NCBI GenBank assembly: GCA_040876265.1
Contig: JBBDPN010000002.1
Span: forward strand, 100,818 to 164,817
Length of the DNA: 64,000 nucleotides
Reading direction: 5' to 3'
Origin: Candidatus Woykebacteria bacterium
GTDB taxonomy: Bacteria > Patescibacteriota > Microgenomatia > Woykebacterales > RBG-16-39-9b
Both the position numbers and the translations under genes were made by a program. The notes under the pieces are model-generated. The model worked only from the letters and a program-made list of their open reading frames with translations. It did no database searches and was not told the origin of the DNA. Of this stretch, positions 2,888 through 25,185 are shown piece by piece (the first letter of the stretch is position 1; each line of letters begins with the position of its first letter).

Positions 2888-3454
2888 CTATCTTAGGTTG
2901 ATCACTAGCTCATTGGGCAAGATCCGTCCGCGTGTCTTGTCGACCAACGGTGTTTGGTCGATGAACCACGCGAAGACGTAGACCGACAGCCCGACCCCAG
3001 CGATAAACGCTTGCCATGAGGGCCCGTCGCTTTCGAGCACCGCGGGAAGCACCGTGACCATCAGGTAGAACATTACACCGGCGATCACCGTATGATACAC
3101 CTCACTCGCGTTGACGGCATCACTCCAGGAGAAGAACCCAGTCCGCAGGTTGTTTACGTGCAGACCCATGAAGAAAGCGTAGCCGACCACGAGAACCGCA
3201 ATGTGCCACCAGATCTCGGTGTAGAAACCGGAGAACTCTCCGTCGGAGACTACAGCCGCGGCGAATCCAGCGTACACTGGAAGGCCGATCGTGTCTCCTA
3301 CCTTGAAGCTCCACCAACGCAAGAAGTAGAGTTTCCGCTCCACATAGATCCGGATGGTCATAATGACCCCGAAATCGATGACGAAGACGAAGAATCCCAC
3401 CAGCGCCGGGTGCCAATCCCATATCGGGAAGAAGCTCCCGAATTGATCGGGCAA
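2888..3454 (-). CDS. hypothetical polytopic membrane protein (GC-rich gene, ~57% GC)
   Basis: several hydrophobic helices, W-rich; no recognisable family; GC content and codon third positions clearly differ from flanking genes; overlapping shadow ORFs on both strands typical of a GC-rich coding region. Confidence 0.55.
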   Translation of the reverse strand: MPDQFGSFFPIWDWHPALVGFFVFVIDFGVIMTIRIYVERKLYFLRWWSFKVGDTIGLPVYAGFAAAVVSDGEFSGFYTEIWWHIAVLVVGYAFFMGLHVNNLRTGFFSWSDAVNASEVYHTVIAGVMFYLMVTVLPAVLESDGPSWQAFIAGVGLSVYVFAWFIDQTPLVDKTRGRILPNELVINLR

Positions 3455-13835: not shown

Positions 13836-14033
13836 TCAGGCAAGCTTTACGTTTTTTGCACTTGGGCCTTTGTCGCCATCCACAACATCAAACTCAACGG
13901 CGGCTCCTTCTTGAAGCTCGTCAAAAGTAACGCCATTTAAATCGTTTGAGTGGAAGAAAAGATCTTTTTCTTCACCTTCACGAGAAATAAATCCGTAGCC
14001 TTTATCTGTTTTTGTTTTGACTGTTCCGTTCAT
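13836..14033 (-). CDS. csp: cold-shock protein (CspA family)
   Basis: KGYGFI ... FFH RNA-binding motifs; start at MNGTVKTK with GGAGGTACC RBS (ORF-track TTG start upstream is unlikely). Confidence 0.85.
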   Translation of the reverse strand: MNGTVKTKTDKGYGFISREGEEKDLFFHSNDLNGVTFDELQEGAAVEFDVVDGDKGPSAKNVKLA

Positions 14034-14111
14034 ATGGTACCTCCTTTCGTTCCTTATTATAAAGTATCCAGGGGTAATTACCAAATTTTAAGGGAACGCA
14101 GCTAATATTCG

Positions 14112-14186
14112 TGGCTCCCCGGGCAGGATTCGAACCTGCAACCTTGAAGTTAACAGCTTCCTGCTCTACCATTGAGCTACCGGGGA
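14112..14186 (-). tRNA. tRNA-Asn (anticodon GTT), CCA encoded
   Basis: cloverleaf TCCCCGG-TA-GCTC-AATGGTA-GAGC-A-GGAAG-CTGTTAA-CTTCA-AGGTT-GCAGG-TTCGAAT-CCTGC-CCGGGGA-G-CCA. Confidence 0.85.
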
Positions 14187-14419
14187 ATAATGGACTTCAA
14201 AAATTCTTTACCTATTCCGCTTTTTAGATATTTCTCTCTTTTCCTTGCTTGCAAACGAGTTGCTGTTTCCTCTTTATACAAAATTTTCCACGGTCTGTAA
14301 CCTTTTGTTGAAAATACTCTTCCCAAATTATGTTCTCTTATTCTTCTGCCCAAATTCGTGGTGAAACCAACGTAAATCCTTCCGTCTTTTTCACTTATTA
14401 AACCATAAACTGTAACCAT
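14177..14419 (-). CDS. GIY-YIG nuclease family protein (YhbQ/UPF0213-like, 80 aa)
   Basis: VYGLISEKDGRIYVGFTTNLGRRIREHN matches GIY...YIG...R..EH core; stop codon TAG lies inside the tRNA-Asn acceptor stem. Confidence 0.7.
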   Translation of the reverse strand: MVTVYGLISEKDGRIYVGFTTNLGRRIREHNLGRVFSTKGYRPWKILYKEETATRLQARKREKYLKSGIGKEFLKSIIPR

Positions 14420-14421
14420 AG

Positions 14422-14496
14422 TTTACAGCTTCCTGCTCCCTGCCTACCGACAGGCAGGTACCATTGATCCGCCGGCTGGTGGAGAGCTACCGGGGA
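14422..14496 (-). pseudogene. degenerate copy of tRNA-Asn 5' half (acceptor to anticodon loop) interrupted by two hairpin insertions
   Basis: shares TCCCCGGTAGCTC / AATGGTA / GAGCAGGAAGCTGTaAAC blocks with tRNA-Asn at 14112-14186; inserted 18-nt and 20-nt (perfect hairpin CCTGCCT-GTCGGT-AGGCAGG) segments; ends 2 nt before GIY-YIG start. Confidence 0.6.
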
Positions 14497-14609
14497 ACGC
14501 GAATTGCTATTTTAGCATTTTACACCAACCTATTCAAGCCTTAGCCATTTTAACTGTTTACTTTTTCCTCTATCTTTGCTAAAGTGGGCCCCAGCAAAGG
14601 AAGGGCTTT

Positions 14610-24748: not shown

Positions 24749-24985
24749 TTAAGCCAGTCTTTTGTTTCTAAATGCTTGTCCAGAACCAGTTTTTAGGTAA
24801 CGTTCAAATCTTAATGCCTTTAATCTATCGGTAAATTCGCAGTACCAAACAAGTTTTACTGGCCTTAGGTCTTTCGTGGACCCAACCAAACCGTTTTGAT
24901 GTTCATTAAGGCGTTCTTTTAGCTTGGGTGTGGAACCCGTGTAGACAGATTTGTCTTTCAATCGTAGTAGGTAAACGTAATACAT
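24749..24985 (-). CDS. GIY-YIG nuclease family protein (YhbQ/UPF0213-like, 78 aa)
   Basis: MYYVYLLRLKDKSVYTGSTPKLKERLNEHQNG matches GIY-YIG URI core. Confidence 0.75.
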   Translation of the reverse strand: MYYVYLLRLKDKSVYTGSTPKLKERLNEHQNGLVGSTKDLRPVKLVWYCEFTDRLKALRFERYLKTGSGQAFRNKRLA

Positions 24986-25095
24986 AAGTGACCACCCTAC
25001 GTTAAAACTTCTGGTGACACCCTCCGCTAACTTTACTAACCTAATTACCTACTCTATTTAGGTGGCTTGCAGCCACCTGAAGCTTTAGCGAAAGG

Positions 25096-25185
25096 TGGCG
25101 GAGGCGAGAGGATTCGAACCTCTGGTACCGTCACCGGCACACGCGATTTCCAGTCGCGCCCGTTCGACCACTCCGGCACGCCTCC
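25096..25185 (-). tRNA. tRNA-Ser (anticodon GGA), long variable arm, CCA encoded
   Basis: GGAGGCG...anticodon loop CTGGAAA, variable arm GTGCCGGTGACGGTACC, T-arm GAGGTTCGAATCCTC. Confidence 0.85.

Follow-up and report, generated by a model that had tools for sequence, protein, structure and literature searches.

What is the gene for a minimal nuclease doing between an intact transfer RNA (tRNA) gene and a broken copy of that same gene, and why does its reading frame end within the tRNA? These questions are raised by a locus in a 64,000-nucleotide (nt) stretch of Candidatus Woykebacteria DNA (contig JBBDPN010000002.1, positions 100,818 to 164,817), to which we refer, at its full length, as the window. 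On its minus strand the 5′ half of a tRNA-Asn gene, interrupted by two short insertions, is followed by an open reading frame (ORF) for a GIY-YIG protein of 80 amino acids (aa) and then by a complete tRNA-Asn(GTT). A sequence-only reading of this DNA had proposed these three parts, and ARAGORN, Pfam, Rfam and alignment found each of them in its place. As set out below, comparison with relatives identifies the arrangement as an insertion into the tRNA-Asn gene, and a wider survey identifies it as one case of a recurrent module.

The tRNA-Asn locus and its empty counterparts

The features of the locus, in the order in which they are read, are the following:
14509..14537, minus strand: promoter-like site, TTGAAT-17 nt-TAAAAT with a TG extended -10 (consensus scan; sigma-70-like)
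14420..14496, minus strand: pseudo-tRNA-Asn 5′ half, tRNA positions 1 to ~39 with two insertions, and the ORF leader (alignment)
14467..14484, minus strand: 18-nt insertion after tRNA position 11-13 (placement ambiguous by 1-2 nt)
14439..14458, minus strand: 20-nt palindrome CCTGCCTGTCGGTAGGCAGG, between tRNA positions 21 and 22 (GGTA/GAGC, the slash marking the insertion point here and below)
14177..14419, minus strand: GIY-YIG ORF, 80 aa, a bare catalytic domain (Pfam PF01541)
14177..14179, minus strand: TAG stop of the ORF, coinciding with U8-A9-G10 in the intact tRNA-Asn (read from the sequence)
14112..14186, minus strand: intact tRNA-Asn(GTT) with an encoded CCA end and no promoter of its own (ARAGORN; Rfam, 69.9 bits)

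The closest relatives of the window, retrieved via the syntenic P-type ATPase, carry the site in its uninterrupted form. In the nearest of them (L240, with an ATPase 82% identical to the window's) the tRNA-Asn is identical to that of the window at 75/75 positions and lies 112 nt from the nickel superoxide dismutase (Ni-SOD) gene, the corresponding distance for the window pseudo-half being 113 nt. An intact tRNA-Asn beside Ni-SOD is found likewise in L242/L243 and in L244, and in all these relatives neither a GIY-YIG ORF (tblastn) nor the palindrome was found. When the sequences are aligned, the promoter block is shared; in the relatives the tRNA comes straight after it, and in the window ~310 nt extra stand between the two. 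The more distant L002 and L004, with ORFs 75% and 71% identical to the window's, carry the full arrangement at their own tRNA-Asn genes. There is, in other words, a presence/absence polymorphism at tRNA-Asn, with the site filled in the window and L002 and empty in L240, L242/L243 and L244. Because the nearest relatives keep an uninterrupted site with the identical tRNA-Asn beside Ni-SOD, the window arrangement is, by this comparison, an insertion into the tRNA-Asn gene; the suggestion of the sequence-only reading that a GIY-YIG-bearing element had inserted at, or duplicated, the tRNA gene is thus borne out by the empty sites.

The pseudo-half reads TCCCCGGTAGC, then 18 nt, TCAATGGTA, the 20 nt of CCTGCCTGTCGGTAGGCAGG, and GAGCAGGAAGCTGTaAACT. 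Neither ARAGORN nor Rfam calls a tRNA in it; in local alignment with tRNA-Asn it scores 57.6 against a shuffle mean of 13.8 (z = 17.9; 0/200 shuffles reach the score), so that the tRNA origin claimed for this upstream segment holds under a formal alignment. Its position 1 is separated by 12 nt from the end of the promoter-like site, and the consensus scan from that site to the intact tRNA found no further promoter-like site and no terminator-like site. On this layout the promoter-like site looks like the one that the tRNA-Asn gene had originally, from which the pseudo-half, the ORF and the tRNA would now be expressed jointly.

The 20-nt insert folds strongly (-13.1 kcal/mol, z = -3.45) through 7 Watson-Crick pairs and one G-T pair: the hairpin noted earlier is real, its description as perfect is not. 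The palindrome CCTGCCTGTCGGTAGGCAGG is the single such site in 64 kb, where 0 are expected. Folding of the 18-nt insert alone was not significant (z = -1.38), and its earlier description as a second folding hairpin could not be upheld. The whole pseudo-half folds no better than shuffles (z = -0.77), just the palindrome standing out, and a reading of the pseudo-half as a structured RNA was dropped on this result.

The ORF has no stop codon of its own and takes that of the tRNA. The sequence-only reading had seen this overlap correctly, and had set the TAG inside the acceptor stem; at positions 8-10 it lies just 3′ of the stem, into which the last two sense codons alone fall. Upstream of the ATG at 14419 there is no Shine-Dalgarno sequence (GCTGTAAACTATG, 14419-14440), which suggests weak or unusual translation of the nuclease; the neighbouring cold-shock gene, unlike the GIY-YIG ORF, has a strong one (AAAGGAGG, 14033-14050). 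The intact tRNA-Asn scores 69.9 bits in Rfam against a gathering score of 29 and is the sole match at the locus in both gathering and permissive Rfam searches, which returned no group I intron and no other RNA family. The idea of a decayed tRNA intron, offered in the sequence-only reading, therefore remains unsupported. The window also contains a transfer-messenger RNA gene.

By profile, catalytic residues and fold, the 80-aa protein belongs to the superfamily of GIY-YIG nucleases. It matches Pfam PF01541 with E = 9.1e-15 (55.2 bits against a cut-off of 22.6), and Y5, Y16, R26, H30 and E62 are invariant among 29 homologues. The AlphaFold model (pLDDT 95.9) shows one beta-beta-alpha-beta-alpha-alpha domain covering nearly the whole 80 aa, with no C-terminal DNA-binding domain. 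Foldseek matched it to UPF0213 BH0048, to the Slx1 nuclease domain (TM 0.67-0.70) and, more distantly, to the I-TevI catalytic domain; the best sequence matches among solved structures are UPF0213 proteins (4e-9), the nearest being the uncharacterised BH0048 and EF2693. NCBIfam holds no specific model for the protein, and its group I intron endonuclease model scored 19.3 bits against a cut-off of 56. The search of PADLOC defence systems gave marginal hits only (E ~0.006-0.009) and that of the PHROGs phage families no match. The family is large, with 5,492 cluster representatives in a profile search at E <= 1e-10.

The window holds a second, divergent GIY-YIG ORF (24749-24985, minus strand, 78 aa, ~44% identical to the first), located 110 nt downstream of tRNA-Ser(GGA) (25096-25185, minus strand) and just ahead of dnaG. 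After this tRNA comes a 19-nt hairpin, AGGTGGCTGCAAGCCACCT, at 25060-25078, and there is no tRNA copy 3′ of the second ORF. In the relative L244 the tRNA-Ser abuts dnaG directly, which indicates that the second ORF, too, is an insertion, of ~335 nt.

Recurrence of the module and its palindromes

When the species genomes of GTDB were scanned, 559 homologous stretches were confirmed and 80 of them kept as loci; with L002, L004 and the two loci of the window added, the set analysed comprises 92 ORFs. In 37/92 the stop falls exactly at positions 8-10 of a same-strand tRNA (an offset of -9) and in 18/92 elsewhere within the tRNA; it lies 2-12 nt ahead of the tRNA in 9/92, the tRNA starts 13-100 nt downstream of the ORF in another 9/92, and 8/92 ORFs directly follow an intact tRNA. 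A significant copy of the 5′ half of the locus's own tRNA was detected in the 140 nt before the ATG at 64 of the 71 testable loci. The occupied tRNAs are mainly Asn in the candidate phyla radiation (CPR) and Arg (CCT, TCT, ACG, CCG) in Bacteroidota and Chlorobiota, with Phe, Thr and Ile also represented. The sequence-only reading had called the window locus a footprint; as far as an insertion was meant this stands, and passive decay does not fit, as the arrangement is a conserved module in dozens of loci. A full-text literature search, in which the exact 20-mer was included, brought up no account of a tRNA-embedded arrangement of this kind.

The first palindrome of the family has the consensus CCTGCCTGCCGGCAGGCAGG, a perfect, near-invariant 20-mer from which the window copy differs by two C>T changes. 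With up to 4 mismatches it is present within 120 nt upstream of 64/92 ORFs (41 with the exact consensus), and most of the other loci have a 19-nt or nested palindrome variant. Its insertion site is TA/G, usually at tRNA positions 21/22 in the D-loop (GGTA/GAGC or GGATA/GAAT) and in some clades at 26/27 or 9/10, and it interrupts GGTA/GAGC without duplicated bases. A miniature inverted-repeat transposable element (MITE) with target-site duplication was for this reason rejected for the tRNA sites, and in place of the possibly MITE-like hairpin of the sequence-only reading there is a palindrome that hardly varies and keeps a fixed position in the tRNA. Outside tRNA genes the palindrome is flanked by direct repeats, whose length varies.

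Several departures from the common layout were read. In a minority layout (L047, L057, L066, L071) the ORF follows the intact tRNA and the palindrome lies in the copy 3′ of the ORF; in L026, L072 and L075 palindrome-bearing halves flank the ORF on both sides and the intact tRNA follows; L009 and L034 contain tandem arrays, and L049 has ORF-less halves adjoining an intact tRNA. Full-length tRNA copies interrupted solely by the palindrome occur in L064, L048, L058 and L008. Wherever such copies, palindrome-only or variant, were read, an uninterrupted copy of the tRNA in question adjoined them, and the principle common to all these layouts is that of an ORF enclosed by two copies of one tRNA gene, one of them disabled by a palindrome. 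The full-length interrupted tRNA-Arg copies are the genes of 93-95 nt that ARAGORN labels 'tRNA-???' (L064:2961-3053 and 3129-3221, L048:379-471, L058:2728-2822). In L008 (2850-2990) the second tRNA-Arg copy bears the palindrome at 21/22 and, in its T-loop at TTC/GATT, a longer hairpin that shares its stem (CCTGCCTG...CAGGCAGG). A contig classed as viral (IMG/VR UViG_3300035537_000177; L116:515-534) carries a full pseudo-half, palindrome and GIY-YIG ORF, the half ending in GGCTTTTAAA, which resembles the anticodon loop of tRNA-Lys(TTT).

Two GIY-YIG ORFs in tandem at one tRNA-Asn were observed in L044 (2450-3105) and L252 (683-1314). In L044 two modules are stacked: ORF1, of the main family, is preceded by the first palindrome, and ORF2, 42% identical, has its own pseudo-half with a perfect palindrome of 18 nt, CTCCGCCAGCTGGCGGAG. 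Four further independent members of this second subfamily share this tRNA-Asn architecture, with the TAG stop again at positions 8-10. In 5/5 subfamily-2 loci, L044 ORF2 included, the second palindrome follows tRNA position 12 with 0-1 mismatch, and the first palindrome is absent from all five. Since the second subfamily carries the second palindrome in every locus examined, protein and hairpin co-vary, and in these sequences the type of palindrome goes with the protein subfamily. The 18-nt insert of the window differs from CTCCGCCAGCTGGCGGAG by 3 mismatches, where 0.02 such matches are expected in the window, and it occupies the same tRNA position; it is probably a degenerate relic of the second palindrome type, and a subfamily-2 ORF that could have been its partner was sought in the window and none was found.

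Other small hairpins are found in the pseudo-halves. The element CCTGTCTRCCGRCAGGTAGA stands after tRNA position 7 or 17 in some of them (L004:1300-1420; L011, L059, L082), and CCTCCC-N3-4-GGGAGG hairpins follow position 12 in L019, L027 and L038; pseudo-halves thus appear to accumulate several small-hairpin families. At L250:1240-1328 and L251:1240-1315 the tRNA-Asn 3′ of the subfamily-2 ORF diverges beyond the second base of the anticodon (...CTGT/CGAGTAAGGCAGC...), and ARAGORN makes no tRNA call in these sequences, which end shortly beyond; as read here, this may be an insertion or an intron in the anticodon loop.

The exact 20-mer CCTGCCTGCCGGCAGGCAGG was also encountered elsewhere, in 35 stretches of viral contigs and at least 120 metagenome stretches. 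The assumption that the palindrome is confined to tRNA genes was rejected, as most of the exact copies listed from metagenomes and viral contigs are intergenic with no GIY-YIG gene nearby. Among the matches listed, the intergenic exact copies mostly have no tRNA nearby, the host DNA being of very different GC content, and the non-tRNA copies often lie inside imperfect 7-nt direct-repeat stutters that extend to both sides. Examples on the metagenomic and IMG/VR contigs (L085-L239) are L093:8396, L122:429, L165:435, L162:10633, L137:3147 and L225:2095, and in L093 an exact 14-nt repeat flanks the 20-mer on both sides.

With respect to its evolution, the GIY-YIG ORF is under purifying selection as judged from codon substitution: the ratio of nonsynonymous to synonymous rates (dN/dS) is 0.04-0.32 overall and 0.08-0.16 for the window ORF against L002 and L004, and dS is 1 or more in most pairs of clade members. 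Because the synonymous sites of the ORF are saturated, the near-invariance of the palindrome reflects selection and not recency. Substitutions on the sense strand of the palindrome are skewed, with 25 C>T against 10 G>A (p = 0.017, uncorrected for relatedness). A neighbour-joining tree of the proteins, of low resolution because the protein is short, groups related taxa, with repeated switches of tRNA type and a few cross-phylum placements; the grouping of related taxa suggests long residence. For a test of concerted evolution we used clades sharing a derived layout (e.g. Pedobacter, with a 19-nt palindrome at 26/27), and the upstream pseudo-copy bore the lineage-specific variant of its own tRNA in 180/187 cells, which indicates that the two tRNA copies keep exchanging sequence. 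In L002 the anticodon stem of the upstream half is that of the window/L240-type tRNA-Asn and not that of L002's own tRNA, a mismatch that looks like a fossil of horizontal arrival.

Related systems, proposed mechanism and rival explanations

The closest known system is, by analogy in genomic terms, the Ssn family (Neisseria SsnA, NTS/SRM hairpin repeats, CDD cd10448; Chenal et al. 2025, PMC11893778). These are single-domain GIY-YIG proteins of 94 aa that bind their cognate hairpin repeat as single-stranded DNA (ssDNA) only and cut a few nt 5′ of it, their genes being flanked by the repeat (PMC11893778). The module shares with them a single GIY-YIG domain of ~80-94 aa, in which the Y6/Y17/E64 spacing of SsnA is equivalent to Y5/Y16/E62 here; a gene flanked by a hairpin-forming inverted repeat whose type tracks the protein lineage; and the occurrence of the repeat away from the gene as well. 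In contrast to the Ssn repeats, the palindromes described here are perfect, 18-20 nt long and free of a conserved asymmetric flank besides the TA/GA of the tRNA, and one copy is present in this 64-kb window against hundreds per Neisseria genome. The gene, moreover, is embedded in a duplicated tRNA gene with its stop inside the tRNA, and PMC11893778 never mentions tRNA. The published Ssn motif, HGTCWYN(0-2)YYVSBRHN(0-5)WNVSBRGN(0-2)RNCYNB, was matched by 0/92 ORFs in their 300-nt flanks with a regular expression that finds the Neisseria NTS control.

A second comparison is with SegB and the free-standing T4-like GIY-YIG homing endonucleases (PMC13096335; PMC2988022), in which nuclease genes are likewise physically tied to tRNA genes. 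In T4/T6, SegB drives the recombination-dependent tandem amplification of a tRNA + segB unit (PMC13096335); nuclease-associated tandem units of tRNA and nuclease, presence/absence polymorphism and (micro)homology between the 3′ end of the nuclease gene and the 5′ end of the tRNA are common to both systems. Seg proteins, however, exceed 200 aa and have a DNA-binding domain, where the protein here has 80 aa; their genes have neither a cognate palindrome nor a conserved half-tRNA leader; and they reside in phages, whereas the module is chromosomal and its protein has no PHROGs match. The sequence-only reading went further in inferring homing-endonuclease-like behaviour; the bare 80-aa domain is nearer to the Ssn, UPF0213 or SLX1 type than to I-TevI or Seg.

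REP/RAYT systems and IS200/IS605 elements (with PATE derivatives) resemble the module in pairing a dispersed short extragenic palindrome with a small palindrome-flanked nuclease gene, in a short specific insertion sequence without target-site duplication, and in the presumed recognition of an ssDNA hairpin. The module differs from them in having a hydrolytic GIY-YIG nuclease, not an HUH Y1 transposase, with no covalent strand-transfer chemistry, and in sitting within a tRNA duplication. Integrase-driven islands and prophages that target tRNA genes similarly regenerate an intact tRNA, and at their other end part of the tRNA remains as a direct repeat. Here, by contrast, there is no tyrosine or serine recombinase, the insert of ~310 bp has a single 80-aa ORF, and it is the 5′ half, not the usual 3′ part, that is duplicated, the partial copy being marked by the palindrome. 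Fungal mitochondrial free-standing homing endonuclease genes (e.g. in Allomyces atp6) carry with them a substitute for part of the host gene into which they are inserted. As in the module, the ORF inserts into an essential gene, the displaced segment is brought or recreated so that function is kept, and a pseudo-fragment is left adjacent; unlike it, the hosts are organellar and protein-coding, the fusion is in frame and there is no palindrome.

Taking these observations together, the locus is probably occupied by a small mobile cassette (~310 bp) that resides in tRNA genes and consists of a minimal GIY-YIG nuclease gene and a lineage-specific short perfect palindrome. In this model the tRNA promoter would transcribe pseudo-half, ORF and tRNA as one RNA, from which RNase P would then free the tRNA. 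On the pattern of the Ssn nucleases, the protein would bind its own palindrome extruded as an ssDNA hairpin and cut just 5′ of it, and the break would be repaired by homologous recombination between the flanking tRNA repeats. Such recombination would explain the concerted evolution, the tandem arrays, the palindrome-only copies and precise loss. Occasionally the cassette might be copied into the cognate tRNA gene of another genome, the conserved tRNA sequence providing the homology arms. A single crossover between a circular form, made of the ORF and a palindrome-marked tRNA, and the resident tRNA would yield both layouts, the common one when the crossover falls 5′ of the palindrome and the minority one when it falls 3′ of it. 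That the common layout predominates would be in line with a break immediately 5′ of the hairpin, and selection for expression from the tRNA promoter could account for it equally well; both the single crossover with a circular form and double-strand-break repair at 21/22 can reproduce the two layouts, and the sequence does not discriminate between them.

A number of points weigh against this cassette model. Within families the module looks mostly vertically inherited, which would make mobility rare, and the empty sites could reflect losses rather than a gain in the window. Most of the exact palindrome copies listed lie in intergenic DNA outside tRNA genes, away from any GIY-YIG neighbour, and a few loci (L064, L050 and L021) have an intact ORF but a different upstream hairpin or none. 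Palindrome binding, ssDNA specificity and the cut site are all taken by analogy from Ssn, whose published motif is absent from the flanks of 92/92 ORFs. Furthermore, a nuclease that cuts its own locus is no obvious driver of the invasion of empty alleles.

The main rival is classical homing on double-stranded DNA, which we regard as unlikely. Here a free-standing homing endonuclease would cut the tRNA D-loop at TA/GA, the palindrome would be the insertion conferring immunity on the donor, and double-strand-break repair would spread the gene. The constant position of the palindrome at TA/G, in the most conserved part of the tRNA gene, is what such an enzyme would leave, both filled and empty alleles exist, the palindrome-only tRNA copies resemble short conversion tracts, and the GIY-YIG enzyme SegB does cut tRNA-containing DNA and co-localise with tRNA genes. 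The palindrome disrupts one tRNA copy, but an intact, presumably cleavable one persists 3′ of the ORF in the same filled locus, which weakens this reading; the protein, at 80 aa, has no DNA-binding domain. Any insertion would disrupt the target, yet the 20-mer is near-invariant across phyla despite synonymous saturation, and the type of palindrome follows the protein subfamily though the target, the tRNA-Asn D-arm, is unchanged. It is also quite improbable that the arrangement is a domesticated, host-beneficial one acting at the RNA level, in which the hairpin-bearing pseudo-half would be a structured leader regulating how the ORF is translated or the tRNA processed, and the nuclease a housekeeping enzyme. 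Long persistence within families, strong purifying selection on the ORF and an apparently obligatory co-transcription agree with such a role, and the excess of C>T over G>A in the palindrome (25 vs 10; p = 0.017, with relatedness uncorrected) is compatible with G-U pairs, although transcription-associated deamination of the non-template strand could produce the same bias. The module is nevertheless dispensable, being missing from the nearest relatives; it switches between tRNA types and is patchily distributed; the whole pseudo-half does not fold better than its shuffles (z = -0.77); the same palindrome occurs in unrelated intergenic DNA; and the characterised Ssn enzyme does not bind RNA.

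Far less likely than either is that the palindrome is a spliced or tolerated insert, that is, a novel bacterial D-loop tRNA intron, and that the interrupted copies are functional. The calling by ARAGORN of palindrome-only, full-length tRNA genes as tRNAs of 93-95 nt (L064, L048, L058) is what this would lead one to expect. An uninterrupted copy of the same tRNA nonetheless stands beside each interrupted one in the loci read, the majority of the interrupted copies are only truncated 5′ halves, Rfam returned neither a group I intron nor any other match, and bacteria are not known to have the archaeal and eukaryal splicing endonuclease. A chance or neutral origin, in which an old tandem tRNA duplication decayed and acquired unrelated hairpins and an unrelated small ORF, is effectively refuted by the survey and is the least credible of the alternatives: dead DNA does gather insertions, and the window pseudo-half has two different ones, but against this stand the dozens of loci that share the geometry, their palindrome nearly unvarying and set at a fixed place in the tRNA, together with the concerted evolution of the tRNA copies and the co-variation of protein and palindrome.

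Beyond the cassette model, we put forward more tentatively, as a possibility short of an even chance, that small GIY-YIG nucleases with cognate perfect palindromes of 18-20 bp form a class of recombinase-free mobile elements, which would cut ssDNA beside the hairpin, use the conserved tRNA sequence on either side as universal homology arms for being copied into the cognate tRNA gene of whatever genome, and mobilise the bare palindrome in trans. If true, trans mobilisation would explain the identical 20-mer in the intergenic DNA of very different bacteria and on viral contigs, and the class would be a GIY-YIG counterpart of REP/RAYT, giving Ssn-type ssDNA nucleases a natural biological role.

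Consequences for tRNA genes and small GIY-YIG proteins

A tRNA-resident cassette of nuclease and palindrome, of the kind of a GIY-YIG selfish or Ssn-like element, is widespread and apparently undescribed. It provides a genomic context for a large family of tiny 'GIY-YIG nuclease family proteins' of unknown function and links this family to the newly discovered hairpin-specific ssDNA nucleases, and the defined pairs of protein and palindrome are candidates for new sequence-specific ssDNA tools. For annotation there is a risk that pseudo-halves, and tRNA copies interrupted by the palindrome, are wrongly called as intron-containing or otherwise odd tRNAs. The findings suggest a new lifestyle for a selfish gene within an essential one, from which it would borrow the promoter and the stop codon of the tRNA, as well as the tRNA sequence for recombination. 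In small CPR genomes, what is likely the sole tRNA-Asn appears to depend on read-through of the cassette.

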